From the NCBI GenBank assembly GCA_964580065.1, contig CAZOJE010000002.1:66978-130977 (forward strand): DNA of 64,000 nucleotides, written 5' to 3'. Of this stretch, positions 8,737 through 50,592 are shown piece by piece; within the stretch, counting starts at the first letter, position 1, and each line of letters starts with the position of its first letter. A program made the position numbers and the translations under genes. The notes below the pieces were generated by a model that worked only from the letters and a program-made list of their open reading frames with translations, did no database searches and had not been told where the DNA came from. The stretch comes from an uncultured Candidatus Saccharibacteria bacterium (GTDB lineage Bacteria; Patescibacteriota; UBA1384; DTJR01).

Positions 8737-9743
8737 TGGCACAGCAAATTGGAATTGATTTAGGTACTTCAAATATTAGGTTTTTTATTCCCAAACGAGG
8801 CATTGTTATTGATGAACCAAATGTTGTGGCTCTTTCAACCGCTAGCCAAAAAGTTATTTCCGTCGGCGAAGAAGCAAAATTGATGCTCGGGCGAACACCC
8901 GATTCGATTATCGCCTGTTATCCTTTAACCGGCGGCGTTATTGCCAGCTATAAAACAACCAAGCAAATGCTTAGTATTTACCTTGGAAAACTACTGGGGA
9001 AAGTCCGGCTTTTTAAGCCGGATATTCTTATAAATGTGCCGGTCGGCGCAACCTCAACAGAAAGAAAAGCTGTTTTTGATGCGGCGGAATCAGTTGGCGC
9101 TCGAAATGTTTATCTTGTTAAATCTCCTTTGGCTGCCGCCATCGGCGCCGGTATCGACATAGTTTCAAGCTCGGGAAATATGCTTATTGATATCGGTGGC
9201 GGCAAAACTGAAGTAGTCGTTATTTCTTTGGGAGATATTGTTTGCTCTAGTTCTGTCCGCTACGGCGGAGAAAAGATTGATGAAGCGGTTATTTCTTATA
9301 TCCGCAAAAAACATAATTTAGTTGTTGGGGCGCAAACGGCCGAAAAAATCAAAAAATCAATTGGTTCGGCCATGACCGCCAAATCCGATGCAAAAGAAGA
9401 AATTTCGGGTAGCAATACCATTTCGGGTTTGCCGGAAAGCATCATGGTTTCTTCTTCTGACATAGTTGCCGCTATTAAGCCAGTCCTTAATGAAATTATC
9501 TTATCGGTTAAGCAAGTTTTGCAAAAAACTCCGCCGGAACTTTCCAGCGATGTTATGGATAAAGGAATTTTAATGAGTGGCGGCGGGGCTAAATTAAACA
9601 AGTTTGACGATTTGCTAACTAAAATCAGTGGTGTCCCCTGTCAAGTTGCAGAAGAACCAGACCTGTGTACAATTAAAGGCATAGGAATAATTCTGGAAAA
9701 TTTTGAGAATTTTTCGGATTCATTAATATGGAAAAACAAATAA
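8736..9743 (+). CDS. mreB: Rod-shape-determining actin homolog MreB
   Basis: IGIDLGTSNI N-terminus and the actin/Hsp70 fold motifs (DIGGGKTEV). Confidence 0.9.
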   Translation: MAQQIGIDLGTSNIRFFIPKRGIVIDEPNVVALSTASQKVISVGEEAKLMLGRTPDSIIACYPLTGGVIASYKTTKQMLSIYLGKLLGKVRLFKPDILINVPVGATSTERKAVFDAAESVGARNVYLVKSPLAAAIGAGIDIVSSSGNMLIDIGGGKTEVVVISLGDIVCSSSVRYGGEKIDEAVISYIRKKHNLVVGAQTAEKIKKSIGSAMTAKSDAKEEISGSNTISGLPESIMVSSSDIVAAIKPVLNEIILSVKQVLQKTPPELSSDVMDKGILMSGGGAKLNKFDDLLTKISGVPCQVAEEPDLCTIKGIGIILENFENFSDSLIWKNK

Positions 9744-10837
9744 TTGGCGTTGACGCTTCTCGTTCAAATTCGACTCAGAAAACCGGAACCGAGTACTATT
9801 CTTACGAGTTAATCAGAAATCTAGCTAAGTTTGATAATGCTTTTTTTCGCTTATATTCAAAAGAACCGTTGGATTATTTACCAAAAAGTGACCATTGCGA
9901 AAACAAAGTGATGCAGTTTCCTCGGCTTTGGAGCCAGATTCGTTTAAGCTGGGAAATATTTCAAAATCCACCGGCCGTTTTGTTTGAACCAGCCCATACA
10001 ATCCCCCTTTACCATGGCAAAAAAACGGTCGTCACCTTGCACGATTTGGGTTTTAAACATTTTCCAGAGCTCTACACACCGCTAGAGCGAATTTACCACA
10101 GTTTTTGTATGGATTTTTCAACGCGACATGCTATAAAAATTATTGCTATTTCGCAGGCCACAAAGAAAGACCTCATTGATATTTATCATGTCGACGAGAA
10201 AAAGATCGAAGTTATTTATCATGGCTTTGACAAGGATAAATTTTATCCGGCTCAAAAACCGGCCGGCGAAAAAATCAAAGCTTTAATGCCATATATATTT
10301 TTTATCGGCCGGCTTGAGGCCAAGAAAAATATTGTAAATTTGATAAAATCTTACGGTTTATTGCGCCAAAACGATCAGATCAAAGAAAAATTAGTTTTAG
10401 CCGGCCGGCCTGGTTATTTGTATGAGGATATCAAAAAAGAAATCGACGCTCTCCCAGCCAAAATTCGCCAAGATGTTATTGAGCTTGGCTATGTGCCCGA
10501 TGAAGAAGTTGGCGATCTTTCGAGATATGCTTCGGTTTTTGCCTTTCCTAGTCGCTTTGAAGGATTTGGTATGCCGCTACTGGAGGAAATGGCTTGTGGC
10601 GTGCCGGTTGTCGCTTCAAATACCACCTCAATTCCCGAAATTGTGGGTGAAGCCGGACTTTTAAGCGATCCTGACGATGCAGAAAAATTTTCCTATAATC
10701 TCGAACAAGCCATTACAAATATCGACCTAAGAAAGAAAATTATTGAAAAAGGTCTTAAAAGATCCGCGGAATTTTCTTGGGAAAAATGCGCTCGAGAAAC
10801 TCTCAACCTAATCTTATCAGTAGCAAATAAACAATAG
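9728..10837 (+). CDS. GT4-family glycosyltransferase (group 1)
   Basis: C-terminal EGFGMPLLEEMACGVPVVASN motif typical of GT4 enzymes. Confidence 0.8.
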   Translation: MEKQIIGVDASRSNSTQKTGTEYYSYELIRNLAKFDNAFFRLYSKEPLDYLPKSDHCENKVMQFPRLWSQIRLSWEIFQNPPAVLFEPAHTIPLYHGKKTVVTLHDLGFKHFPELYTPLERIYHSFCMDFSTRHAIKIIAISQATKKDLIDIYHVDEKKIEVIYHGFDKDKFYPAQKPAGEKIKALMPYIFFIGRLEAKKNIVNLIKSYGLLRQNDQIKEKLVLAGRPGYLYEDIKKEIDALPAKIRQDVIELGYVPDEEVGDLSRYASVFAFPSRFEGFGMPLLEEMACGVPVVASNTTSIPEIVGEAGLLSDPDDAEKFSYNLEQAITNIDLRKKIIEKGLKRSAEFSWEKCARETLNLILSVANKQ

Positions 10838-11707
10838 CTAAATATCAACCCTAACTAAATTGGCTTGAATAATGAGCCGGTTTAATGACGTACCAACCGG
10901 CCAACAAGTCATCAAGGTCAGTGTTTCGAGTTTTGTTTCGTCTAATACTTCTACGTTTTTTGCCTCGATAACACGTTTGTCGGACACGGAGTAAACGTAA
11001 CGGCGGCCGTTGGCGTAAATTTCAACCTGATCGCCGCGAATCAGCTTGTCTAAAAGGGCAAAAACCGAATTATAGTCGCTATGAATCCAACTATAATTTG
11101 AAGAATGGCCGACAATGAAAATATTTCCGCCGTTGCCGGGCAAAGAAGTATTTTCATAATGAACCACGCCGCTGGTAAGTTTACTTAAGATTTCGTTTTC
11201 CGGCACGTTCCAGCTGATTGGTACATCTACCGAAATTTTTCCAATGATTAAGCGATCTTGTTTTGTCGGGTCTTCATTGAACGACGGAATGGACTCCGGT
11301 AGCCCAAGCGAATCGGGCGTGCTAGTAGCGGTTGGTGTTGATGTGCGCGTCGGGCTATTCGTGCTAATTTTGCCTTCTGGCGCTTTTTGATTGAGGTATT
11401 CGCTGTAATAGAGCCAATAAAATTGCTTCTTGAAGGCCGTGTAATTCATTGCCACGTAAAAGCTAAAAGTGACTATGCCGACAACAGCCGAAAACATCAG
11501 CAGGCGGTCGAGACTGTCAGGCCCTTTTTTATTTTTTTTCTCTTTGCTTTTTTTCGTCAGCGCAGTTTTACTGATTTCCTTTTTGACCTTTTTTAGCATC
11601 AGCTCATCTTGATGCGGCCGAATTTTTTTTACTTTTAAATTCGGCTCAAATTTTGGCCCATCGTTGTCTTTAAATATCTTCTTGAGATCGTCTTCAGTAA
11701 TTTTCAT
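10838..11707 (-). CDS. Sortase-family transpeptidase with a lysine-rich cytoplasmic N-terminus and a TM anchor
   Basis: Catalytic His (NIFIVGHSS) and the TLMTCWP Cys motif. An S/T/P-rich linker follows the TM helix. Confidence 0.7.
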   Translation of the reverse strand: MKITEDDLKKIFKDNDGPKFEPNLKVKKIRPHQDELMLKKVKKEISKTALTKKSKEKKNKKGPDSLDRLLMFSAVVGIVTFSFYVAMNYTAFKKQFYWLYYSEYLNQKAPEGKISTNSPTRTSTPTATSTPDSLGLPESIPSFNEDPTKQDRLIIGKISVDVPISWNVPENEILSKLTSGVVHYENTSLPGNGGNIFIVGHSSNYSWIHSDYNSVFALLDKLIRGDQVEIYANGRRYVYSVSDKRVIEAKNVEVLDETKLETLTLMTCWPVGTSLNRLIIQANLVRVDI

Positions 11708-13047
11708 TTATGGAAGTTTTTGCTGATAAATATAAGTGTTTGCTTTTTGCTTGCCGAGTTAGAAATAGCATAATCGTTGGCCTGCTCCAAGATTTGCTTG
11801 AATTTTGGACTCGGCTCAAAGCCAAGCTTAATCAAATCGTCTCCGGTAATGAGATTTTTTTTGGGAAATTTTGACATTTCCCTTTGATTTTTTTTCGCCG
11901 CGACTAAGTCGGATTGCATTTTTTCAACCAACTCCGTATTAACTGGATAAGTACCTTCGCTGTCAGCGCGCACTAACTCAATTAACATCGGAAAACGTGG
12001 GTCGAGGACAAAATTCATTTTTTTGCTGGGGCGCATTTTATCTATATCGCCAATGCGCATGTGGTAATGAATCAGCCATTCGACTGTTTCGATCTCATAA
12101 TTGGGAAATTTCAATCGACGCAATATTTCTGTGGCCTTAGCAGCAGACTGTTCAGCGTGATTATAAAAAGTAATACGGCCATTTTCTTCGTTAAAAGTTT
12201 GCGGCTTGGCAATATCGTGCAAAAGTACTGCCCACGCAATAAAACTAGGCGTGTCGCGTTTAAGCGAACGCAAAGCCAGATAAACGTGCGTAAAAACATC
12301 ACCCTCGTGATGATATTCTAATGGTTGCGGCACACCTTTAAGCGCCTCAAGCTCGGGAATAACTTCCTCTAAAATTCCGCTTTGAGAAAGTTCAATTAAC
12401 CCTATGTGACGATTAAAAGAAGAAAAAATGAGATTTAATTCGTCTCTTATTCTCTCGGGTGCCACTTCTTTGATTAGTTTTGATTTTGATTTGATAATGT
12501 TAAAGGTTTCGCGTGAATACTGAAAACCCAAAATTACCTTAAACCTTACCGCCCGAATCAAACGCAGATGATCTTCCTCGATTCTTTCCGAAGCGTCGCC
12601 AACAAATCTGATTACCCCTTTTTTGAGATCTTCTTCGCCGCCAACATAATCAATAACTTTATTTTTCAGCGGATCAAAAAAAAGGGCGTTAATTGTTAGG
12701 TCGCGTCGCCGGCAATCTTCTTGAGCTGACGAAAATTCAACATGGCTGGGGCGCCTTTTGTCCTCGTAACCGCTTTCAATTCTGAAAGTGGCCACTTCAA
12801 AATTTTCCTTTTGTTCAATCACATTTATGACGCCAAAACTTTTGCCGATTGCCACGGTAGAGGAAAAAAGTCTTTCAATCTCTTCTGGCAAAGCCGAAGT
12901 GGCAATATCATAGTCCTTAGCAGTTCTCCCTAAGAGCATGTCACGAACGCAGCCACCCGCAAAATAAGCTTCGTGGCCATTTTTCACGAGTTTTTTGACT
13001 ATTTCTGTCGCAAGCTGTTTTTTAGTTTTTTTCATCGGCTTTTTCAA
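11704..13047 (-). CDS. cca: CCA tRNA nucleotidyltransferase (poly(A) polymerase family head plus HD domain)
   Basis: Nucleotidyltransferase motif GGCVRDMLLGRTAKDYDIAT and an HD domain (HDIAK). Confidence 0.85.
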   Translation of the reverse strand: MKKPMKKTKKQLATEIVKKLVKNGHEAYFAGGCVRDMLLGRTAKDYDIATSALPEEIERLFSSTVAIGKSFGVINVIEQKENFEVATFRIESGYEDKRRPSHVEFSSAQEDCRRRDLTINALFFDPLKNKVIDYVGGEEDLKKGVIRFVGDASERIEEDHLRLIRAVRFKVILGFQYSRETFNIIKSKSKLIKEVAPERIRDELNLIFSSFNRHIGLIELSQSGILEEVIPELEALKGVPQPLEYHHEGDVFTHVYLALRSLKRDTPSFIAWAVLLHDIAKPQTFNEENGRITFYNHAEQSAAKATEILRRLKFPNYEIETVEWLIHYHMRIGDIDKMRPSKKMNFVLDPRFPMLIELVRADSEGTYPVNTELVEKMQSDLVAAKKNQREMSKFPKKNLITGDDLIKLGFEPSPKFKQILEQANDYAISNSASKKQTLIFISKNFHK

Positions 13048-13621
13048 CTTTCATAAGGCCGTGCCACCAGCTTGCCGTAAAGTTTACATCATTTTTCACC
13101 AAATTAAGGATTTGTTTGGCCGAATCGGTTTTGAGAGCATTTTCTACGTTTATTATCCATTCCCAACAGCCCCTATAGCCCGCTTCAAAATAAATTTTGG
13201 CTTGAATAGCGACTTCGAGCCAGTCGGCATCTTGGCAAATTATTCCTTCTTGGGTATTACGCGATCTTTTTTCTTCCGTTAAGGCAGCAATTTTTTCAGC
13301 TAATTCCTGCGGCAACATCGTTAATTGATCGGCTTCAACTTTCGACTCGACTTTTTTTGAGTCAATATAGCGTGCGCCAACCTTGTGTATGTCGCCAATT
13401 CTGATTTCGGCGATATCGTGAAAGATTGCCATCGAAGCAGTTTTCTCTGGATCAGCGCCCTCAAGATAGGCCAAAACATAAGCAATTTGGGCGGTTAGCA
13501 AGGAGTGTTCGGCAATGCTGTCAGGAAATGGAACCGAGGTCATTCGCACACCTTCGTGTTTGACTCGTTTCAACATTTGAAATTCTGAAAATAATTTCTT
13601 GATATTATTAAAATCCGTCAT
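13022..13621 (-). CDS. HD-domain phosphohydrolase (YfbR-like 5'-deoxynucleotidase)
   Basis: HS...HD motif (AEHSLL...IFHDIAEIRIGD), about 200 aa. Confidence 0.65.
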   Translation of the reverse strand: MTDFNNIKKLFSEFQMLKRVKHEGVRMTSVPFPDSIAEHSLLTAQIAYVLAYLEGADPEKTASMAIFHDIAEIRIGDIHKVGARYIDSKKVESKVEADQLTMLPQELAEKIAALTEEKRSRNTQEGIICQDADWLEVAIQAKIYFEAGYRGCWEWIINVENALKTDSAKQILNLVKNDVNFTASWWHGLMKVEKADEKN

Positions 13622-13837
13622 GCCCCTCCAGTTTCTATAATAAAGTTCTTTTTACGAAAACGTTTTTACCTAAAACGTTTCCGATTCCAGCTTTCTTATC
13701 TGATAAAATAGTATCAAATTGTCCTATTGGAAACAATGATACGACTTAGATACCGAAAAATCTTACCGAAATATTCTTCGTTAGATAGTTAAGAATCTTA
13801 CCAAAGTCTGTTAAACTGCCAAGATTATGTACGAAAA

Positions 13838-13858
13838 GGCCTCGCCAGAGGCGAGGCC
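13838..13858 (-). terminator. Perfect 9-bp hairpin GGCCTCGCC-AGA-GGCGAGGCC just downstream of the GC-rich ORF, with a short U run on the minus strand
   Basis: Seen in sequence. It sits 40 nt after the stop of ORF 13901-14581. Confidence 0.5.
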
Positions 13859-13900
13859 CGAACTACAAAGCGAAAGGGTTTATAAGTTAGAAGACAAGGG

Positions 13901-14581
13901 CTACGTGCGGGTATACACCCAGATCTTGTCGCCTTCGCAGAAGGCCTCTGGATCGCCGCAGAAGCCGTATAGACAGAGGCCATCGTCACCGTGTTCGACG
14001 CTGAAGACCCCGGAGGAGCAATGATCCGGGCAGGCGATAGGATCCATGTACATCAAACACTGTTCACCGAGAGGCTGTTGCCCTGGGTACTGCAATCGTA
14101 GCTGCGCGCCGGATTCGATCGGGAGCTTCTTTGCGCCGATCTTCTCAAGCGCTTCGAAGTTCTGCTTAACCTTGCAGCCGCAGGGATAGCCGAGTTCGGC
14201 GCTACTGGCCCTGTAGAGGTCTAGCGTGCCGAGCTCCGAGAGGAGTGTGAACTTCTCGCAACCCATGAGGTTGCCAGCCCAGTTGCCAATGTAGTAGCCC
14301 CTGCTCTGCAGGGCATGCTCCAAGGTAGGGACCGAAGCGAAATTGCCGACAGTAATCGTGGCAAACGGCGGGCGCTCGGGCAGCGGCATGTGCATCGCCT
14401 GCTCGGCAGCCAGTAGATTCCAGAGGTCGTGCATCCGACTGACTAACCAAGGGTAATCTTTGACCAGGGTGAGTTTTGCATCACAGCCCTGGTACTCCTT
14501 CGCAGCATCTTCGGCCATTTGGCCTATTTGCCGCGCCAGCCAATTCCTTTCGGTCACTTTGGAAGTACGCCGATCTGGCAC
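13901..14581 (-). CDS. Hypothetical Cys-rich protein (226 aa) encoded in GC-rich (about 56%) DNA; function unknown
   Basis: GTG start preceded by AAAGGGGAG 8 nt upstream. The C-terminus is Cys-rich (CPDHCSS...CLYGFCGDPEAFCEGD). Its composition is strongly atypical for this genome. Confidence 0.55.
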   Translation of the reverse strand: MPDRRTSKVTERNWLARQIGQMAEDAAKEYQGCDAKLTLVKDYPWLVSRMHDLWNLLAAEQAMHMPLPERPPFATITVGNFASVPTLEHALQSRGYYIGNWAGNLMGCEKFTLLSELGTLDLYRASSAELGYPCGCKVKQNFEALEKIGAKKLPIESGAQLRLQYPGQQPLGEQCLMYMDPIACPDHCSSGVFSVEHGDDGLCLYGFCGDPEAFCEGDKIWVYTRT

Positions 14582-14700
14582 CAGGTAGCTCCCCTTTCGT
14601 GTCCAACATGATATCTCGCTTCAAAGCGAGGTTCGCCCTTCGGGCTTAGCTATTTACCTGTAATTTCAGCTAAACAATTAAGCCCGAAGGATTATTGTTA
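14582..14700 (-). promoter_or_regulatory. Structured 5' leader of the GC-rich ORF
   Basis: Seen in sequence: a 12-bp perfect inverted repeat CCTTCGGGCTTA/TAAGCCCGAAGG enclosing about 30 nt, a GCCC-UUCG-GGGC tetraloop hairpin and a CTCGCT-TCAA-AGCGAG hairpin. Confidence 0.35.
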
Positions 14701-14954
14701 AGGTTCTATTCGAAGAGAAAAATATACATAAATACATTCAAAAAAACAAGGGTTCGGCTGGCATGGTGAATCCTCGTCAAAGCACATCATCTCGTTTCTA
14801 ATACCAAATCGTTCTTGTTCTGTGATAAGGTTTATCGTCCAGTGATTTTGCCTGACCCTTAAACCAAAATATTCCGTCAACTTTTACAGCGTTGGCTTGT
14901 AAAAACCTCTCCCTTAAAATTTTAGTGGCAAGCTCTATGGCCCACAGATCGTAT

Positions 14955-15317
14955 TTATTTTTCTAATTCCTCTTTCAGCAATGCAACAATTTGTTTTCTC
15001 ATAATCAGGTTTGGTCTTTCCGCTGAAATATCTGTAAATTTTATATTAAAGATTTTTTCCAATAACTCTTTTGTTCCGCTATCATGGGTAACAAAAAAGT
15101 TTTTGCAATCGGCAAGTTCAATTGTATTCTGAAAAACAAAATTTAAATTCATTGTTTGTTTAATCTTTTCAAGCGTTTGAGTAATTTCGCCACCCCTTTC
15201 TTCTATTAACTTCTTTGCGCCCATCATTTCAATTTGGGCAATACCAACTTTTTTGTCGCCCATAACAAACCATGCAAAATTGCCACTTACTTTTGCGACG
15301 CCTACTGTGCCTGGCAA
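14955..15317 (-). CDS. Hypothetical protein, possibly a 3' gene fragment. Its 5' end overlaps the IS30 remnant on the opposite strand
   Basis: ORF only; no recognisable motif. The real start may be the internal MMGAKK near 15227. Confidence 0.25.
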   Translation of the reverse strand: MPGTVGVAKVSGNFAWFVMGDKKVGIAQIEMMGAKKLIEERGGEITQTLEKIKQTMNLNFVFQNTIELADCKNFFVTHDSGTKELLEKIFNIKFTDISAERPNLIMRKQIVALLKEELEK

Positions 15318-15497
15318 AAAGGATCAATAAAAAACATTATTGGTCTAGTGAGACAATACTTGCCCAAAGGCAGTAACATCACTAATCTAACCAACGATGA
15401 CTTATACGTAATTCAAGAGCGTCTCAACAACCGACCAAGAAAAACCTTGAACTACCAAACACCAAATGAGATATTCAAACAAATAGCAACAAAGTGA
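15234..15497 (+). mobile_element. Remnant (C-terminal about 80 aa only) of an IS30-family DDE transposase
   Basis: DAYCAWQKGSIKNIIGLVRQYLPKGSNI...LNNRPRKTLNYQTPNEIF matches the IS30 transposase C-terminal signature (PYSPWQRG-NEN-NGLLRQYFPKG ... NNRPRK-LG-KTP-E-F). An in-frame stop lies at 15207, so there is no upstream DDE region. Confidence 0.6.
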
Positions 15498-15520
15498 TGT
15501 ACTAAATTCGAGAGCTCACC

Positions 15521-16424
15521 CTATTTACAATACTTTCTTAATTCTCCGGCTATTTCATCCGCGTCAATTTTGCTGTAATCTTCTCCAATCCAAAGCTTTA
15601 GTGCTTCAACAGCCTGGAATATCATCATATAGAGACCGGAACATACAGTAGCCCCCGATTGTTTTGCGTTACTTAAAAATTTCGTTTCATAGGGGTTAAA
15701 TATCGCGTCAAAAAAATACTTATTTTTCAAAGAACCGAGTTTGTTATAAATTTTTTGAGCAACTATCTCGCCATCATTGTCAGGGTACATTCCCACAGGA
15801 GTAGTATTAATTATAAAATCGGCTTTTGATATGTATTTTATTAGATTATTATCATTTAATTTTGCGTAAATTATTTTTTTATCTTTACTTGAAATATCAT
15901 CTGATAATTTCTCAGCCTGCTCTAGATCTCTGTTTACAATTAGAATGTTTTTGCTTTTTTTATATATCTCATATACAACCGCTCTAGCCGCGCCGCCCGC
16001 TCCGATAACCAACACAAAATCTCGTGGTAAAATACCTCTTAACTTCAATTCCATCGCCCTCATTGCTCCGGCTGCATCGGTATTATATCCGATTTTTTTA
16101 CCCCCCCCTGTACACAATTGTGTTTAGCGCCCCAATTTTCTTAACGGTATCATCCAACTTATCGACAAGTTTAATCGCAGTTACCTTATAAGGCAAGGTT
16201 ATATTAATTCCGGAGAATCCTAATTCTCCGAGATCATCAATATATTTGGCTAATCTTTTTTCGTTTTTGGTGAGGATTTTGACATGAGCATAACCGTCTT
16301 TAATTCCATTGGTTAAAATTCCAAACAAATAAGGCGAGATACTATGTTCAACGGGATTTCCCAATAAAGCTGAATATTTCATATCTTTGTTAATTTTAAA
16401 TATCGATTGTTTAAATCTTTCCAC
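15521..16424 (-). pseudogene. aroE: Shikimate/quinate 5-dehydrogenase (AroE family) split by a frameshift in a poly-G/poly-T tract at about 16098-16117
   Basis: The upstream ORF (16098-16424) has the substrate domain (SISPYLFG...KIGALNTIV). The downstream ORF (15521-16117) has the NTD-Gly junction plus a Rossmann GAGGAARAV motif. The junction reads IGALNTIVYRGG|GKKIGYNTDAAG across the homopolymer. Confidence 0.6.
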
Positions 16425-16954
16425 ACAGGTTCATCCTTTATCAATTCTTGGGAAACCTCTAAGAAGCACTTAATTTTGTCGATAAGATACTTTTTAAGTT
16501 TTTCATCATCAATCAACTTTATATAAAAACTATTGTCATAGATATCTGCACACTTTACAATTGTGGCTTCGTTTCCGCAGCTAACGGTGCGCTTGAACAT
16601 ATCCATATATCTATCTTTTTTATCTTTAATATCAGAATTAAATGACAATGCCGACACCACGTCTGCTATCTTGGGTCCGAATTGTTTTTTGATTTCAGAT
16701 TTGCTGGTGTTGCTGTCTTCGATCAGATCATGAAGCAACGCAACGATAATAATATCCTTGCCATATTCTTTATTCAATAGATAGAAAGCAGTTTTTACTG
16801 AGTGCAAAATAACCGGCTTGGAATTGTTGCCAGTCTCATTATATTTGGACACTAGAAAAAAAATAGCTCTTTCGATCTCTTTGGCGTTTTTGGGTTTGAT
16901 ATACAACTCATCTCCTTCTCGTAAATATACTATCACTCCTGTTAAATAATTCAA
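16379..16954 (-). CDS. Stand-alone HD-domain protein resembling the RelA/SpoT (p)ppGpp-hydrolase domain (small alarmone hydrolase-like)
   Basis: KPVILHSVKTAFYL...IIVALLHDLIEDSNTSKSEIKKQFGPKIADVV parallels the Rel HD region (ILHPL...AALLHDVVEDT...FG..VA.LV). Confidence 0.6.
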   Translation of the reverse strand: MNYLTGVIVYLREGDELYIKPKNAKEIERAIFFLVSKYNETGNNSKPVILHSVKTAFYLLNKEYGKDIIIVALLHDLIEDSNTSKSEIKKQFGPKIADVVSALSFNSDIKDKKDRYMDMFKRTVSCGNEATIVKCADIYDNSFYIKLIDDEKLKKYLIDKIKCFLEVSQELIKDEPVWKDLNNRYLKLTKI

Positions 16955-16988
16955 GGTTAATGCAAAACGGCCGCAGCTCCTTTCGGAG

Positions 16989-18050
16989 TCACGGCCGTTC
17001 GGTTAAGTTTGCGATATGATCGGCGAGAGACTTTGAATCACCGGACACATAGCGCAGGTCTGCTTGACCAAGAACCGCCGCGATGATGCTTTTACGCATC
17101 TCGAACAGTCTCTTGGAATCAAGCGAGGGGATGTATCCCATCAGGTCGTGGCTATCATTGCCGAGCATTACGGTACACGTTGATCGGATATAGCGAGAGA
17201 AGTTCTCATTCAGATACAGCCTCGTAACCAGATTGTTGGCTGCATCGGAGTAAACTTCTCCTTGATTCTCGTCTACGTGGACCATAAAGGCCCGCACAAT
17301 TGGTCTATTAGTCTGCTGTACCTCAATTTCCAGGTCTTCTGGCTGGATCTTCGTCTTGTGTAACCATGGATCAACCGTCGACTTCGGAAAAAACGGTAGC
17401 AGTTGCGGCTGACTTCTTCTGATTGACTCGTAGCGCAGGAAGAAGAATTTGGTCCCCCCAAGAGCAACCAAATCTTCTCCGGCAAGTCCGATGACTGCCA
17501 GATCGTTAGCGATCAATCTCGCGCTATGTCGCAGGCAGAGCTCAAGAGCAAGGGTGGTTTTGCCGGCCCCTTCCTTCCCAAGCAGTAATACTGCTCTGCC
17601 GTTGATTTCAACGCAAGCGGCATGCGCTGTCAGTGATGATCTCTGTTGACGTTGCAACTCGACCAGGGGATAGCCGAGATACAAAACGGTCTCCCCATTC
17701 CGCATCTGGTTCCATGGAAAGTGCACGTCAACGCTTCGTTTGCCAAACTCCAGGAGCGCTTCAGTGCTGTTGCGATACACCACTCGGTACACAGATTCGG
17801 AAGGCGAAGGCGACGCCTGAAAATCAGGAACAAAGCAGCTGTATCCCGATTTGGCAAACAACGGATACAGATCGACGTCGCTTGTGAAGTTCAAGTTGAC
17901 TCCGCACGATTCAATACTGCACAGGTGTGGCGTTTTCCTCACCTCCCTATCTGACCAGTGGAGTTTCCAGTATGTCTCGCAGATAATCGGCGTCAAGGAC
18001 GCACTCTTCGACCAGTCTTTGCACCTCTTTCTTATCAACATCTCTGTCAA
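16989..18050 (-). CDS. HPr kinase/phosphorylase-like P-loop protein (HprK C-domain homolog) in GC-rich DNA
   Basis: AVLLLGKEGAGKTTLALELCLRHSARLIANDLAVI matches the HprK signature [34 protein letters not shown] (Walker A followed by ALEL-x-R-H-x-L-ADD). Confidence 0.5.
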   Translation of the reverse strand: MTEMLIRKRCKDWSKSASLTPIICETYWKLHWSDREVRKTPHLCSIESCGVNLNFTSDVDLYPLFAKSGYSCFVPDFQASPSPSESVYRVVYRNSTEALLEFGKRSVDVHFPWNQMRNGETVLYLGYPLVELQRQQRSSLTAHAACVEINGRAVLLLGKEGAGKTTLALELCLRHSARLIANDLAVIGLAGEDLVALGGTKFFFLRYESIRRSQPQLLPFFPKSTVDPWLHKTKIQPEDLEIEVQQTNRPIVRAFMVHVDENQGEVYSDAANNLVTRLYLNENFSRYIRSTCTVMLGNDSHDLMGYIPSLDSKRLFEMRKSIIAAVLGQADLRYVSGDSKSLADHIANLTERP

Positions 18051-18504
18051 GACTGACCGACAGCATCCCGGGAGGTATCAGCGTTTGGCTGTTCTTGGAC
18101 ATGGCCAATACGGTACATCTCGCGCCCATTCGCTTCCAGATTTCTTTGGCGAGCACCGTTGTTATATGCCCCAAGACACGCCCCGTGTGGTACATGGGGT
18201 TTTTGCCGTACGGTGCTTCCATTGAGTGGAGTCGGCAGACGGAGATAACACCGTTGTTGGTGTTGCCTCTTCCGACCAGTCCCTCCTCACCAAACTCGAT
18301 ACAGCTGCCGGTTCCTAGAAGGTATAGCCTACTTGCCGAGTTCACGCTGACGGTTGCCTCATATGGACGACAACCTATCGGCGGAGAGTTCTCTTTTAGC
18401 CGTGAATTTATTAAATACTGCCGATCTAAAAAAGTATCAAGTGAAGCAAAACAATATGGAATAGATATATTTTTAACTACCCATGCGGTTGGCGGAGGAT
18501 TCAA
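17947..18504 (-). CDS. Hypothetical protein upstream of and overlapping the HprK-like gene; the two may be one gene if a frameshift is present
   Basis: ORF with a plausible amino-acid composition, co-oriented with the HprK-like gene. Competing plus-strand ORF 18095-19054 has S/P/L-rich wrong-frame-like composition in the overlapping GC-rich part. Confidence 0.3.
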   Translation of the reverse strand: MNPPPTAWVVKNISIPYCFASLDTFLDRQYLINSRLKENSPPIGCRPYEATVSVNSASRLYLLGTGSCIEFGEEGLVGRGNTNNGVISVCRLHSMEAPYGKNPMYHTGRVLGHITTVLAKEIWKRMGARCTVLAMSKNSQTLIPPGMLSVSLDRDVDKKEVQRLVEECVLDADYLRDILETPLVR

Positions 18505-18565
18505 AACGGGAGAGGTATTACTGGGCAGAAAATTTCACAAGCCCAGCTTCCCGAAGATTGTTCCG

Positions 18566-19054
18566 ATGTTTAAACAGGTTTATTCGTCAGCAATAAAAAC
18601 ATTATTAGACTATCCAATAAATAAAAATATTAATAGATCGATCAATGACCAGAAAACCATCTGCATAGATGATAATAATACGTTCAAGCACAGAGATAAG
18701 GTTAATGATCTGTTGGATTACTCTAAAAGACAGATTACAAAAAATGAACAATTATATAAGGATATTGGATTTACGAATTTTTCATTGTTTTCAAAGCAAA
18801 TTAATTCGGGTCAATCTATCACCTCAAAAGATTGGGGCAATATCTTAAGTGATTTTTTTGTTATCTTCATGAAATCTAATGATAAAAACGCAGCTTTGTC
18901 TGCAGAATTAATATCTCCATTGTTTTTTCTTAGGACAATATCATTTTGGTTTGAAGTATTAAATGAAACACCAATAGTAGTAGAAAAAAAACTTGAAGAC
19001 CAAGCAGAACTAATCAGAAAATTAACTTGGGACAAAATTAGAACCCATAAATAA
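18566..19054 (+). CDS. Hypothetical N/K-rich protein (AT-rich portion of ORF 18095-19054)
   Basis: Open frame only; internal Met at 18566. No family recognised. Confidence 0.2.
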   Translation: MFKQVYSSAIKTLLDYPINKNINRSINDQKTICIDDNNTFKHRDKVNDLLDYSKRQITKNEQLYKDIGFTNFSLFSKQINSGQSITSKDWGNILSDFFVIFMKSNDKNAALSAELISPLFFLRTISFWFEVLNETPIVVEKKLEDQAELIRKLTWDKIRTHK

Positions 19055-19159
19055 CAAACGGTTATTTACATACCTATCCTGCTATTCAATTAGGTAGAAA
19101 TTTTTATTTTCTTCTCCCACCTGTCTTCCCATCTTATAGAACAAACTTGCCTGTTCGCC

Positions 19160-19432
19160 TCAAGGTCGTTCAGGTAGAATATTTCCTTCCAAGCCGTTTA
19201 AATCACTAGAATCCACCAAAACAATTTTTTCAAAAATGCTCGTATTATTAAGCTGTTTTGGATATTCAAATTCAAAACGATCAAGCATATATTTTGCCTC
19301 ATCGTGCGGTTGTCCAAAAATTCCCGCAATTGCTTTTTTACCAGTCTTTTCAAGAAATTCTGCATAAGAAATAACGCTGGCAACGCCGTCTAAATCAGGA
19401 CTAGCGTAACATGTAATTAAAAATGGTTTCAT
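19160..19432 (-). pseudogene. ppaC: N-terminal 90-aa fragment of family II (DHH, Mn-dependent) inorganic pyrophosphatase or a DHH phosphoesterase
   Basis: MKPFLITCYASPDLDGVASVISYAEFLEK...IVLVDSSD matches the PpaC N-terminus (KILVFGHQNPDTDAI-SAIAYA...VILVDHNE). A stop follows at 90 aa. No continuation appears in any frame downstream. Confidence 0.55.
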
Positions 19433-19440
19433 ATTTATGT

Positions 19441-19540
19441 TTGCACTAATTAGTGCGGCGCTATGTGTTACTTTTCATCTTACTTCTTCGTGATGCTTCG
19501 TGTGGTGCGGCGCTAGGCGCCGCTTTCACCACGCTTAGCG
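19441..19540. repeat. Double-hairpin palindromic repeat directly 3' of tRNA-Ala(CGC): CACCACGCTAAGCGTGGTG, GCGGCGCCTAGCGCCGC and a partial third unit
   Basis: A near-identical copy, in inverted orientation, lies after tRNA-Leu at 20462-20590. Confidence 0.6.
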
Positions 19541-19614
19541 TGGTGGACCCACCGAGAATCGAACTCGGAATTCAGCAATGCGAATGCCGTGTTATACCAT
19601 TTAACTATGGGCCC
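19541..19614 (-). tRNA. tRNA-Ala (anticodon CGC), CCA encoded
   Basis: Folded by hand: acceptor GGGCCCA/TGGGTCC with the G3:U70 Ala identity pair, anticodon stem CGGCA/TGCTG, loop TTCGCAT, T-arm CCGAG-TTCGATT-CTCGG. Confidence 0.8.
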
Positions 19615-20382: not shown

Positions 20383-20469
20383 GGGCAAGTGGCGGAACTG
20401 GTATACGCGTAGGTCTCAAAAACCTATGGCCGCAAGGCCTTGTGGGTTCGATTCCCACCTTGCCCACCA
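20383..20469 (+). tRNA. tRNA-Leu (anticodon CAA), long variable arm, CCA encoded
   Basis: Acceptor GGGCAAG/CTTGCCC, anticodon stem TAGGT/ACCTA with loop CTCAAAA, variable arm TGGCCGCAAGGCCT, T-arm GTGGG-TTCGATT-CCCAC. Confidence 0.8.
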
Positions 20470-20590
20470 CGCTTAGCGTGGTGAAAGCGGCGCTAAGCGC
20501 CGCACCACCCAAAGCATGATGCAAGTAACACCTAGCGCCGCACCACGACAGTGAGTGAAAGCGGCGCTAAGCGCCGCACCACACGAAGCA
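20462..20590. repeat. Two tandem copies of the tRNA-associated double-hairpin repeat (CACCACGCTTAGCGTGGTG, GCGGCGCTAAGCGCCGCACCAC, twice)
   Basis: Seen in sequence. The first hairpin overlaps the tRNA-Leu CCA end. Confidence 0.6.
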
Positions 20591-47979: not shown

Positions 47980-50079
47980 TTATTTTCCCTGTCTTTTCTC
48001 TATTAACTGTTGAGCAATATTTCTTGGTACTACTTCATATCGATTAAATTCCATAGTGTAACTTGCTCTGCCTTGAGTTAATGATCTAAGACTGGTAGCA
48101 TAACCAAACATTTCGCCCAAGGGAACAAATGCGGGAATCGCTTTAGCATTGCCCCTGTCTTCCACCGTGCCAATTTGAGCTCTCTTTGAATTGAGATCGC
48201 CAAGGACATCACCCATGAATTCTTCTGGGGTGACAACTTCAACTTTCATGATTGGCTCAAGCATGACCGGATCAGCATTTTTGACTGCTTCCTGAATAGC
48301 CATTGAACCTGCAATTTGGAAAGCTAGTTCCGAAGAGTCAACCTCATGATAGGAGCCGTCATAAAGGACAACGTCAACGTCAATAACCGGATAACCCGAA
48401 ATAACACCTTTGTTAAGAGCTTGCTCCACACCTTTTTGAACAGCAGGAATAAATTCTTTCGGAATCGAACCGCCAAAGATTTTGTTCACAAATTCGTTAC
48501 CCTCACCTCTTTCTCGAGGAGAAACTTCGATTAAAACGTGACCATATTGTCCGCGCCCACCAGATTGTCTGATAAATTTACCTTCGGCTTTAGTGCCTTT
48601 GGTAATTGTCTCACGATATGCTACTTGCGGCGCGCCCACATTTGCCTCAACCTTAAATTCACGCTTTAATCTGTCAACGATAATCTCCAAGTGGAGTTCA
48701 CCCATACCAGAAATCAAAGTTTGGTTCGTTTCCTGATCGGTTTTAATCCTGAAAGTAGGATCTTCTTCAGCCAGCTTCGACAAAGCCATACCCATTTTGG
48801 TTTGATCGGCTTTAGTTTTTGGCTCAATTGCAATTTCGATTACGGGTTCGGGGAATTCGATTGACTCTAAACGAACTTTACGATTTTGGGTGCAAAGCGT
48901 ATCGCCAGTAGTGGTATTCTTGAGTCCAACAATGGCAACTATTTCGCCCGCGTAAACTGCTTCAACATCTTCGCGATGATTAGCGTGCATGCGTAAAATT
49001 CGCCCCACTCTTTCTTTTTCGTTATTAGTCGCGTTGATGATGTAGCTACCCGCTTCAAGAACGCCTGAATAAACGCGAACAAAACAGAGCCGGCCGACAA
49101 AGGGATCGGTGGCAATTTTAAAAGCGAGGGCGCAAAACGGTTCTTCATCAGAAGTGACAATTTCTATTTCTTCGTCGGTGCCGGGCTTTGTTGCCACAAC
49201 CGAAGGAACATCAAGCGGATTCGGCAAATAATCGACAACGGCATCAAGAAGCAATTGAACACCTTTATTTTTTAAAGCTGAACCGGTTAAAACGGGAACA
49301 ATTTCATTTTTAATCGTTGCTTGTCTAAGGCCTTTTCGCAAAGATTCTTCATCGAGATCGTTAGTTTCAAGATACTGCTCAAGTAATTTCTCGTCTGTTT
49401 CAGCAACTTTTTCTACCAATTTAACCCGCCAATTTTTCGCTTCTTCCAACATTTCCTGCGGAATTTCTTGCTCTTCGGCCGCTTGACCAAGATCGCCTTT
49501 GAAAATAAAAGCTTTCATGTGGACGAGATCAACTAATCCTTGAAATTTTTCTTCAGAACCAATTGGAATTTGAACCGGAATGGCTTGATTTCCTAGTCGA
49601 TCGAGAATTGATTGATAGGCCTTAAAAAAATCAGCGCCTGTACGATCGAGTTTATTAACAAAGCAAATTCGCGGAACATGGTATTTATCAGCTTGACGCC
49701 AAACTGTTTCAGATTGCGGCTCAACACCAGCGACACCATCAAAAACAACCACGCCGCCATCGAGAACCCTTAGAGAACGCTCCACTTCAACCGTGAAATC
49801 AACGTGGCCGGGTGTATCAATGATATTAATGCGTGTTTTCTCATCTTCGTTATGCCTTGGGGCCCAAAAGCAAGTTGTTGCCGCTGAAGTAATCGTAATG
49901 CCGCGTTCTCTCTCTTGCTCCATCCAGTCCATTTCGGCTTGACCTTCATGAACCTCGCCAATCTTATGCTTTTTGCCAGTAAAGAAAAGAATGCGCTCCG
50001 TAACAGTTGTCTTGCCTGCATCAATATGAGCGATTATTCCAATGTTTCTTGTTTTTTCGAGCGAATATTCTCTTGGCAT
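47980..50079 (-). CDS. fusA: Elongation factor G
   Basis: [21 protein letters not shown] and EF-G domains III-V. Confidence 0.97.
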
Positions 50080-50115
50080 ACTTTACTCCAAAATTAAGCC
50101 CCCTTCCGAGGATGT

Positions 50116-50592
50116 TTATCTGATCTTAGCAAAATGAGCAAATGCCTTATTGGCTTCCGCCATTTTGTGAGTATCGATTTTCTTCTTGAATGCGGCACCA
50201 GTGCTATTTATCGAGTCAACAAATTCGGCCGCTAATTTTTTAGACATTTGAGCGCCTTTGCGATCTCTGGCGGCGTTAATAATCCAGCGCATCGCTAAAG
50301 CGGTTCTTCTCGGTTCCCTAACGTCCATCGGGATTTGATAGTTAGCGCCGCCAATACGTCGGCCGCGAACCTCAACAGACGGGGCCACAGAATTCAACGC
50401 TAAATTGAAAACGTCTAATGGCTCACGTTTTAACTGCTTGGACGCTATTTCCAGCGCATCATAAACTATCCCTTGGGCCGTTTCCTTTTTGCCGTCGGTC
50501 ATTATATGATTAATAAATTTCGTTACAGTGGTTGAATTATAGACACTGTCCGGCAAAATTGTTTGTTTTTGATATTTTGATCTTCCTCTCAT
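50116..50592 (-). CDS. rpsG: 30S ribosomal protein S7
   Basis: Conserved S7. Confidence 0.95.
   Translation of the reverse strand: MRGRSKYQKQTILPDSVYNSTTVTKFINHIMTDGKKETAQGIVYDALEIASKQLKREPLDVFNLALNSVAPSVEVRGRRIGGANYQIPMDVREPRRTALAMRWIINAARDRKGAQMSKKLAAEFVDSINSTGAAFKKKIDTHKMAEANKAFAHFAKIR

Follow-up and report, generated by a model that had tools for sequence, protein, structure and literature searches.

The region at 13622-19540 of the DNA analysed here (a 64-kb stretch of assembly GCA_964580065.1, called the window) is probably a composite scar, left in the chromosome of a Patescibacteria (CPR) bacterium, rather than one tRNA-targeted, high-GC import. We suggest that it comprises three parts: a native family II pyrophosphatase gene (ppaC) that was broken and had its middle replaced, the replacing DNA, a degraded six-gene cluster, and a stranded target cassette of a diversity-generating retroelement (DGR), made of a structured leader, a 226-aa variable protein and a 3' hairpin. 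The cluster block would have arrived or been rearranged through mobile-element and IS30 activity and may later have been trimmed by illegitimate deletions. For a scar in such a tiny-celled bacterium, it is real yet fairly ordinary.

GC content was determined in 500-bp windows, and those outside 13622-19540 served as the baseline (mean 0.402, sd 0.031, maximum 0.478). GC peaked at 0.592 (z 6.2) at 14.0-14.5 kb and was 0.49-0.53 (z 3-4) at 17.0-18.5 kb. The tetranucleotide distance, measured in 1-kb windows, reached z 7.8-8.0 over both GC-rich blocks, and the AT-rich genes separating them had 30-37% GC, under the window mean. The compositional mosaic of the original prediction was borne out by these values (GC z about 6, tetranucleotide z about 8). 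The figure of about 55% GC given for both blocks was correct as to the deviation and too high for the second block: the block at 13.85-14.65 kb reached 59-61% GC, compared to 40% in the window, and the block at 16.99-18.37 kb had a mean of about 51%.

A degraded gene cluster within a broken ppaC

The left flank of the region is a core gene for an HD-domain 5'-nucleotidase (YfbR-like; 13022..13621, minus strand; Pfam HD_3, 1.8e-22), which is syntenic with a CCA-adding enzyme and a sortase in the closest relative, L008. The right flank is tRNA-Ala(CGC) (19541..19614, minus strand), detected by ARAGORN and Rfam, with ppaC downstream of it. Two fragments of ppaC aligned to one intact 308-aa protein, P0119. 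The N-terminal fragment (19169..19432, minus strand) was 87% identical to residues 1-89, and the C-terminal fragment (14955..15280, minus strand; NF003877 positions 205-307) was 81% identical to residues 197-308. Nucleotide homology to L084, a relative with an intact ppaC and different flanks, stopped at window positions 19169 and 15280, the N-terminal and C-terminal breakpoints. Codons 90-196 (337 bp) were swapped for 3,888 bp (15281-19168), leaving the two halves 3.9 kb apart, residues 90-196 gone, and DHH and DHHA2 no longer in one reading frame. The pyrophosphatase had been described as cut to 90 aa; the 90-aa ORF is indeed its N-terminal piece, but the gene is split, and its C-terminal third, overlooked at the time, persists at 14955-15280. 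No closely related genome carrying an "empty" site was found. In the nearest genomes the CCA enzyme was just 53-64% identical and shared synteny stopped at the HD gene, and the contig of the best CCA-enzyme relative (64% identity) ended 1.4 kb past that gene.

The DNA replacing the middle of ppaC is a degraded copy of a cluster of six genes that is common among CPR bacteria. The members are a mannosylglycerate-synthase (MGS)-like glycosyltransferase (GT), a CofE-like ligase, an archaeal-type SAM synthetase (methionine adenosyltransferase, MAT), an HprK-like P-loop protein, a small HD phosphohydrolase and an AroE-like dehydrogenase, and this order was intact in L047 and L050. MAT was followed by the HprK-like gene in every locus with sufficient flank, and the pair was accompanied by GT, CofE-like, HD and AroE genes in about 30 Patescibacteria loci ranging from 25 to 53% GC. 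The copy in the window kept the gene order, yet GT and MAT were truncated and the CofE-like gene was absent. About 2 kb is deleted, so that the 5' part of GT, the whole CofE-like gene and the 5' two-thirds of MAT are gone, and the deletion junction at 18368/18369 joins the GT and MAT fragments tail-to-tail. The GT fragment (GT2/mannosylglycerate-synthase-like, residues 155-379; 18368..19054, plus strand) was recognized by homology to the GT of L047 and L050 (54-57% identity), and the MAT fragment (residues ~253-398; 17947..18369, minus strand; NF003362, 6e-31) was 74% identical to residues 253-395 of the L050 MAT. Both fragments had escaped notice before. The overlapping ORFs reported earlier are real and can be explained by antisense read-through across a deletion junction.

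The HprK-like/ScmC-like P-loop protein (16989..17894, minus strand; 51% GC, GC3 0.57) has a true length of 301 aa, and P0012, also of 301 aa, was 99% identical to it. It had 107 homologues, the majority named as Patescibacteria, and all environmental ones bearing organism names were Patescibacteria. Its identification as a full HPr kinase/phosphorylase was rejected: it fell below the family thresholds (30.3 bits against a cut-off of 33.3 for PF07475, over 51 of 171 profile positions; a score of 30 against 240 for TIGR00679), and only the P-loop region, to which the PDB HprK match was confined, resembles HPr kinase. The small HD_4 (SpoT-like) phosphohydrolase (16379..16906, minus strand; Pfam HD_4, 1.8e-09) is a conserved partner downstream of the HprK-like gene, and the same position was filled in at least 15 CPR loci. 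The gene for the AroE-like shikimate dehydrogenase (15521..16424, minus strand; Pfam Shikimate_dh_N and Shikimate_DH) is frameshifted in GCA_964580065.1 by a G8 run at 16101-16108, which yields ORFs at 15521-16117 and 16098-16424. The frameshift, previously counted as decay, is real in that assembly, but in L045 and L046, two assemblies made independently from the same strain, the run was G7 and the 300-aa gene intact. Erosion as such was confirmed by the broken ppaC, the IS30 scar, the truncated MAT and GT and the lost CofE-like gene. The view that these genes have no place in a CPR genome did not hold, given the Patescibacterial homologues of the HprK-like protein. Conservation of the same gene order with intact genes in relatives, named by the original prediction as evidence against itself, was found: the order of MAT, HprK-like, HD and AroE genes is shared by many CPR loci.

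The two ends of the insert are an IS30 remnant and a 65-nt element. The 3' remnant of an IS30-family transposase gene (15281..15497, plus strand), as predicted, was confirmed by NF033563 (E 7.5e-18), and only profile positions 210-267 of 267 were present. Logan contigs (from other sequencing runs) broke or branched here, consistent with a repeated sequence; only one IS30 end remains, and no target-site duplications were identified. The 65-nt non-coding element (19105..19168, minus strand) begins exactly at the breakpoint of the N-terminal ppaC fragment. It shared at least 90% identity with L050 3652-3723 and L042 ~9735-9800, and elsewhere it adjoins the TrwB/relaxase/DUF3768 backbone of CPR conjugative-element-like loci, a backbone that L050 and L042 have in common. 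A link to mobile DNA was supported for part of the region, as the DGR-target cassette and the 65-nt element recur in conjugative-element-like loci of other CPR genomes.

The GC-richness, with its GC3 excess, is a property of these gene families throughout low-GC CPR genomes. In L050 and L047, the CofE-like, MAT and HprK-like genes had 51-56% GC (GC3 0.54-0.71), and the GT, HD and AroE genes had 34-38% GC (GC3 0.34-0.39); amino-acid identity was comparable for the GC-rich and AT-rich gene sets. A recent import is disfavored because the GC step was kept in both relatives and all cluster genes were about equally diverged. Six loci were examined for the family of the 226-aa protein, and it had 57-64% GC in each. 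For both GC-rich genes the closest homologues came from CPR or low-GC contigs (47-71% identity), whereas the best non-CPR relatives (Streptomyces, Bacillus, Bradyrhizobium) were 27-39% identical. Since the families are GC-rich wherever they occur, the GC-rich pieces were not freshly imported from a high-GC host; the suggestion of such a donor is not supported, given these low identities and the same GC excess of orthologues in other low-GC CPR genomes.

A cassette related to DGR targets

The cassette at 13.84-14.75 kb encodes GC226, a 226-aa protein (13901..14581, minus strand; 58% GC, GC3 0.71). It had been noted as a Cys-rich unknown protein and is homologous to the variable (target) proteins of DGRs. 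In the window it is an orphan: from the lack of RT, Avd and TR within 64 kb and the identical VR in three other assemblies, we infer that GC226 is an inactive, frozen target. GC226 was 47% identical to P0007, target 1 of L042, and the alignment ran through VR and the 3' hairpin. L042 is a textbook DGR within a CPR conjugative element, with Avd and RT between two targets; 24/24 mismatches between TR and VR1 and 30/30 between TR and VR2 fell on TR adenines, that is, 100% in this complete DGR. The VR-equivalent region of GC226 lies at ~13901-14035 and, as in DGR targets, the hypervariable region is C-terminal, with about 43 residues in an invariant scaffold. Pfam has no model for the family, and sequence comparison gave no relative of solved structure. 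The C-terminal domain weakly resembled C-type lectins in a low-confidence AF2 model (pLDDT 63), with which Foldseek returned no matches.

A GC-rich hairpin with a 9-bp stem and a 3-nt loop (13839..13863, minus strand), which runs into a T-run and lies about 40-60 nt past the GC226 stop codon, is a possible further likeness to DGR targets. Over 25 nt it was identical to the hairpins after both L042 VRs, and it was absent after the L042 TR; it was kept with compensatory changes in L086, L087 and L088. It differs from the hairpins of DGR targets in lying ~40-75 nt past the GC226 stop codon and VR end with a T-run, it was terminator-like by pattern scan, and it may be a mere terminator. We regard it as either an intrinsic terminator or a DGR target-recognition hairpin, or both. 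The conserved non-coding leader of the cassette (14630..14750, minus strand) contains a stem-loop of ~21 bp (14637-14690) and shared 83% identity with L042 9822-9941 and 80% with L083. Across six sequences, 91% of cells were paired and 9 pairs carried double changes, and the structure score was reached by 0/500 shuffles. The leader matched no family in Rfam. In this conserved structured 5' leader the cassette is unlike DGR targets, for which, to our knowledge, none has been described.

Alternative explanations

It is extremely unlikely that binning or assembly produced a chimeric mosaic or that the broken genes are sequencing errors. The aroE frameshift does sit in a homopolymer, G8 here and G7 in two other assemblies, but both GC/AT boundaries, the ppaC breakpoints and the GT/MAT deletion junction were all reproduced in independent Logan contigs that were 99.9-100% identical over all junctions (L002 spanning 12896-14441, L006 spanning 13781-15449 and L045 spanning 15411-19510). 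Because these independent assemblies bridge every junction, the region is not chimeric, and it is no assembly artefact. In the model drawn from the original prediction, a single island was integrated beside tRNA-Ala by a site-specific recombinase, took its GC-rich parts from a higher-GC host (e.g., an actinomycete) or the mobile elements of that host, and is now eroding. We consider this model largely refuted and give it little credence, although the 3' end of tRNA-Ala(CGC) faces the region, its composition is highly unusual, the related element L042, which bears a DGR, adjoins tRNA-Ala(UGC) and a serine recombinase gene, and Streptomyces has distant HprK-like homologues. The breakpoints, however, lie inside ppaC and not at the tRNA. 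All ORFs of at least 50 aa at 13.6-19.6 kb were accounted for, and none encodes a recombinase or integrase; the L042 serine recombinase, used as a tblastn query, had no match in the window. The 24-nt tRNA 3' end (up to 3 mismatches) had no copy in the window besides the tRNA itself, and the direct repeat that had been expected at 13.6-13.9 kb was missing, with no repeats of at least 18 nt linking the tRNA to that interval. The GC-rich genes are also closer to CPR and low-GC contigs than to high-GC taxa, and the GC step is conserved in orthologous loci with equal gene divergence.

A composite scar would also be compatible with GC226 still being live, as a remote target whose DGR is encoded in another part of the genome, a reading that we consider improbable. 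The ORF is intact with all invariant family residues present, and an active-looking DGR has an identical IMH-like VR end and an identical 3' hairpin. DGR targets remote from the core are documented, and a cellular, Patescibacteria-restricted DGR clade has been described (Roux et al., 2021; PMC8144416); target recognition requires the IMH plus a hairpin (Guo et al., 2011; PMC3240598). The search covered 64 kb, and the whole contig measures at least 140 kb. Within the 64-kb window, tblastn with the L042 RT and Avd proteins gave zero matches and a repeat search gave no second VR copy able to serve as TR, unlike a complete DGR, and the VR was invariant among the assemblies examined (L002, L006 and L007, contigs from three other runs that maybe represent one population). 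Several family members are likewise solitary, beside IS elements or unrelated genes, and the hairpin reads equally well as a terminator.

Likeness to known mobile elements and gene clusters

The composite scar resembles erosion associated with IS30-family elements in that a recognizable transposase 3' end abuts a broken gene; unlike a complete IS30, it retains ~60-75 codons and lacks a second end, and neither an inverted repeat nor a target duplication was identified. T4SS, relaxase, coupling-protein and serine-recombinase genes accompany relatives of two pieces of the region, at one locus beside tRNA-Ala(UGC), as in a tRNA-linked ICE. In contrast to an ICE, the window retains no conjugation, relaxase or recombinase gene, and the boundaries are inside ppaC and not at the tRNA.

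An HprK-like homologue (27% identity, E 1e-16) was present in the thuringiensin (thu) cluster region of Bacillus thuringiensis CT-43 plasmid pBMB0558 (reviewed in PMC4147579), where a glycosyltransferase gene follows directly downstream and NRPS and nucleotide-sugar dehydrogenase genes are neighbours. The similarity is distant, and no MAT, CofE or AroE is annotated in the stretch shown. The qim operon of Streptococcus pyogenes (Spy49_0450-0460) adds a GlcNAc-ribitol, teichoic-acid-like modification to the wall (Anderson et al., 2026 preprint; PMC12803152). Compared to qim, the CPR cluster has a small HD phosphohydrolase and is without the epimerase, oxidoreductase, NRPS fragment, UDP-glucose dehydrogenase and flippase, and three of its six genes are destroyed in the window. 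By annotation, the two share an unusual enzyme set: an AroE-like dehydrogenase, a CofE-like F420-0:gamma-glutamyl ligase, an archaeal-type SAM synthetase, a PEPCK/HprK-like P-loop protein and a mannosylglycerate-synthase-like glycosyltransferase (PMC12803152). The CPR MAT and CofE-like proteins also matched the PDB templates given for qim (the 4l7i group and 2phn; PMC12803152).

Composition and continuity of the region

GC content in 500-bp windows outside positions 13622-19540 averaged 40.2% (sd 3.1, maximum 47.8). Within the region, a peak of 59.2% (z 6.2) was reached at about 14.0-14.5 kb, the block at 17.0-18.5 kb measured 49-53%, and the tetranucleotide distance in 1-kb windows gave a z of about 8 across both GC-rich blocks. 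The genes separating the two blocks are AT-rich, with an unusually low GC content of 30-37%. The data support the atypical composition described in the original prediction, and the features that it listed were all found: a remnant of IS30, aroE in two pieces, a pyrophosphatase fragment of 90 aa, genes for an HprK-like and a small HD protein, and a Cys-rich ORF.

Independently assembled contigs from other sequencing runs matched the window at 99.9-100% over every junction (Logan contigs L002, L006, and L045, covering 12896-14441, 13781-15449, and 15411-19510, respectively), indicating that the region is not a chimera. The breaks of Logan contigs at 13770-13781 were considered as an island boundary and rejected; a single T/C polymorphism at 13773 explains them, with five contigs ending at 13769-13771 and two starting at 13781, and no structural boundary is present.

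The CCA-adding enzyme adjoining the region had matches in Patescibacteria/CPR genomes only. A MAG labelled as Saccharibacteria ranked first at 64%, followed by matches at 60%, 55%, and 53% (Berkelbacteria) and by many in Peribacteria and Peregrinibacteria. In the four closest relatives, synteny extends over CCA-sortase and the three genes leftward and ends at the HD gene. A scan of genome contigs for the CCA enzyme yielded 34 loci, and the HD gene was kept in only one of them (L008); an empty site was not recovered among the 34, the L008 contig stopping 1.4 kb past the HD gene. The tRNA-Ala(cgc) gene lies at 19541-19614 on the minus strand. It faces tRNA-Leu(caa), and the two have in common a 72-nt, 83%-complementary stretch (19493-19564 and 20446-20517) that comprises the tRNA 3' end and a trailer with two or three GC-rich hairpins. 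An identical CACCACGCTTAGCGTGGTG occurs in the two stretches, which may represent a shared processing or terminator module.

The split ppaC gene and the damaged six-gene cluster

Two pieces of the family II pyrophosphatase gene ppaC were detected: an N-terminal 90-aa ORF at 19160-19432 (positions 4-81 of the 308 in the family model) and a C-terminal 120-aa ORF at 14955-15317 (positions 205-307 of 308). Both match the intact 308-aa pyrophosphatase P0119, over residues 1-89 at 87% and residues 197-308 at 81% identity. The gene had been described as cut to 90 aa; that fragment exists, but the gene is split and its C-terminal piece also survives. The DNA of L084, a contig with an intact ppaC, aligned to 19435-19169 and 15280-14956 of the window, and these breakpoints indicate that 337 bp of ppaC were replaced by 3,888 bp (15281-19168). 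The boundaries of the main insertion are thus inside ppaC and not at the tRNA. Since, in addition, neither an integrase nor a second copy of the tRNA-Ala 3' end was found in the window, the proposed tRNA-targeted insertion was not borne out. Upstream of its intact ppaC (1-182), L084 carries a tRNA-like sequence cut by the contig end, with the anticodon loop TGC (Ala) by eye and not called by ARAGORN, as well as an XRE-type remnant; downstream (1110-1744) are GC-rich hairpins and a SET-domain ORF with a frameshift.

At least the final 58 codons of the IS30 transposase adjoin ppaC codon 197. After this IS30 scar, contig L045 (4100-4655) departs from the path of the window into a different, unrelated GC-rich ORF (MANTTLGETLPQIAGPL...), which suggests that the IS30 fragment is also present at another site, either in the genome or in the community.

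The HprK-like protein had 107 homologues. Its 353-aa ORF extent was rejected (an exact-protein look-up gave no match); the real gene encodes 301 aa, like the 99% identical P0012. All named environmental homologues belong to Patescibacteria, Berkelbacteria, Falkowbacteria, or Buchananbacteria, and the only relatives in high-GC taxa among the 107 were 30-39% identical. In L047, a locus whose HprK-like protein is 69% identical to that of the window, the gene order is GT2/MGS-like glycosyltransferase (GT, on the opposite strand), F420-ligase-like (CofE), archaeal-type MAT, HprK-like, HD_4, and AroE. A metagenome scan returned 33 loci; among these and L047-L049, MAT followed by HprK-like was found in about 30, wherever the flank was long enough, with HD_4, GT, AroE, and CofE-like genes flanking the pair in genomes that span 25% to 53% GC. 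The view that these genes are alien to a CPR genome does not hold, as the named environmental HprK-like homologues are all from CPR and the cluster order is common among CPR loci.

The window keeps the gene order of L047 but with damaged genes. A GT fragment (18368-19054, plus strand) corresponds to GT residues 155-379 at 54-57% identity, a MAT fragment (17947-18369, minus strand) corresponds to MAT residues of about 253-398 at 74% identity to the L050 protein, and the CofE-like gene is absent from this copy. One deletion of about 2 kb has fused GT and MAT tail to tail, which also explains the previously noted overlapping, ambiguous ORFs as antisense read-throughs. Neither a plus-strand ORF of 319 aa nor residues 1-45 of the "MAT" ORF was accepted as a gene, both being antisense read-throughs over the deletion junction. 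With three of the six cluster genes lost, the pathway is probably broken in the window. The aroE frameshift lies in a G8 run (16101-16108), and two independent same-strain assemblies read G7 there, with a 300-aa gene left intact. The break may thus reflect either an error of assembly or a slippage polymorphism, and decay of aroE was not supported.

[quoted passage not shown] Compared through annotations and PDB templates, the CPR cluster has the same rare family combination, and its MAT and CofE-like proteins match PDB templates listed in the same paper (PMC12803152). On B. thuringiensis pBMB0558, an HprK-like homologue (27% identical) is next to a glycosyltransferase gene in the region of the thuringiensin cluster (PMC4147579). 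This homologue (L089, pBMB0558 49464-50324) lies between NRPS and glycosyltransferase genes, and the distant homologues of the CPR protein on Streptomyces plasmids H3-H7 and pBMB0558 are 27-30% identical. The likeliest role of the CPR cluster would be to make a sugar-based compound that is secreted or placed at the surface. Surface chemistry is central in the episymbiotic lifestyle, and the approximately 30 Patescibacteria loci with the enzyme combination of qim, a wall-decorating operon, are a by-product of possible interest.

GC226 and its DGR relatives

GC226, the 226-aa protein encoded at 13901-14581, had no Pfam or NCBIfam match and 10 homologues at 38-61% identity, one of which (P0007, 47%) is encoded in L042. 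L042 contains three copies of a 131-nt repeat: one is intergenic, and the other two are located at the 3' ends of the P0007 gene and of a paralogue. The genes for bAvd and reverse transcriptase (RT) lie between the two target genes. Differences confined to template adenines are the hallmark of a diversity-generating retroelement (DGR). All differences between the template repeat (TR) and the two variable regions (VRs) of L042 (24/24 and 30/30) were located at adenines of the intergenic copy, identifying the locus as a DGR. L042 1-20669 holds this two-target DGR in complete form, with VR1 at 10538-10668, TR at 11053-11183, VR2 at 13343-13473, bAvd, and RT. The alignment of GC226 to the L042 variable regions extends to the stop codon, and the first GC-rich block is a DGR target cassette.

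Two hairpins accompany the gene. A 25-nt hairpin 3' of GC226, GTTCGGGCCTCGCCTCTGGCGAGGCC, is identical after both L042 VRs, is absent after TR, and is kept in other family members via compensatory changes. With its T-tail and its location 40-75 nt past the stop, it may be a terminator, the hairpin of DGR target recognition (PMC3240598), or both. Upstream of the DGR-target genes is a stem-loop of about 21 bp, located at 14637-14690 (inside 14630-14750) in the window, with homologues at L042 9822-9941 and L083 2424-2535 and also in L086, L087, and L088. It is conserved more than the coding sequence and covaries: 91% of cells were paired among six sequences, 9 pairs were changed on both sides, and 0/500 shuffles matched the score. 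The conserved non-coding elements had no Rfam match.

A profile search enlarged the target family to 3,443 clusters (50% identity) at E <= 1e-3. GC226 and 62 members gave no family in Pfam, NCBIfam, and PDB sequence searches, and the GC226 model had no meaningful Foldseek match in the PDB. The family and the hairpin were absent from IMG/VR and the phage collection, and the GC-rich cassette had no blastn match in plasmids. The sole plasmid relatives of the family were hypothetical proteins encoded by symbiosis plasmids of Bradyrhizobium (31-33% over residues 71-226); no annotated RT lies within 5 kb of the one on Bradyrhizobium japonicum pS11L-1 (L085, 19130-19885). This large variable-protein family without a Pfam model and the covarying hairpin upstream of target genes are further by-products of possible interest.

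No RT, Avd, or template repeat was found in the 64-kb window, and the GC226 VR was identical in three other assemblies; the most plausible reading is that GC226 is a stranded, frozen copy. The DGR core may lie beyond the 64 kb.

Origin of the GC-rich blocks

The region is a composite decay scar of known element kinds, in which a stranded DGR target is combined with deletions and what is left of an IS. Of the original prediction, erosion and the connection to mobile elements were upheld, but tRNA-targeted insertion, alien genes, and a high-GC host donor were not. The mobile DNA involved is that of a CPR element, none of whose genes is left here. L042, whose 170-kb contig has about 43% GC, resembles a conjugative element, with a large serine recombinase gene by tRNA-Ala(UGC), a coupling protein, Replic_Relax relaxase, DUF3768, T4SS pilins, VirB4, and the DGR. 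The closest intact cluster copy, L050, has an L042-like backbone directly beside its GT gene (TrwB 41%, Replic_Relax 30%, and DUF3768 51% identical). A 65-nt non-coding element, at least 90% identical, is common to the window (19105-19168), L050 (3652-3723), and L042 (about 9735-9800); it adjoins DUF3768 in the backbones, where neighbouring proteins are only 30-51% identical, and in the window it starts exactly at the ppaC breakpoint. The element may be a promoter, an oriT, an att site, or a small RNA.

A donor of higher GC had been proposed for the GC-rich pieces, and the cluster itself contains a GC step. CofE-like, MAT, and HprK-like genes have 54/56/54% GC (GC3 0.63-0.71) in L047 and 53/53/51% in L050, compared to 38/36/38% (GC3 0.37-0.39) and 35/34/35% for GT, HD, and AroE; in the window, the MAT fragment and HprK-like gene have 49% and 51% (GC3 0.57-0.61), compared to 31/33/35%. 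Amino-acid identities among the three loci were alike for GC-rich and AT-rich genes (54-83%), indicating that the block co-diverged and that its GC-rich part was not a recent separate import. The step was inherited with the cluster and the high-GC relatives of the HprK-like protein are distant, which argues against the host donor. Outside this clade, the GC content of the CofE-like/MAT/HprK-like trio usually exceeds that of its neighbors by only 0-10 points. GC-richness is likewise a trait of the DGR-target family, as the target gene had 57-64% GC (GC3 0.68-0.83) versus 37-46% in the surroundings at 6/6 loci of the close family.

GC3 was 0.55-0.83 in CPR genomes of 35-46% GC for both the DGR-target family (6/6 loci) and the trio (at least two relatives besides the window), and the excess persists despite 30-55% protein divergence, with adjacent co-diverging genes at about 0.35. 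A rather unlikely reading is that the excess is maintained actively, not imported, and that GC226 remains the live target of a remote DGR, controlled by a structured leader of a previously undescribed kind. If true, maintenance would point to recurrent exchange among CPR lineages on L042/L050-type conjugative elements, or to a gene-specific selective or mutational regime. As an island, the region is of little importance, and its main value is a caution: a sharp GC spike in a CPR genome need not signal recent import from a host, since the same genes of distant relatives show the same spike. Two further genes of L047 (13666-15243), encoding a 315-aa protein and a YkuD-type transpeptidase, have 60-64% GC (GC3 0.78) against 34-46% in its other genes, so strong gene-to-gene GC heterogeneity may be common in this CPR clade.
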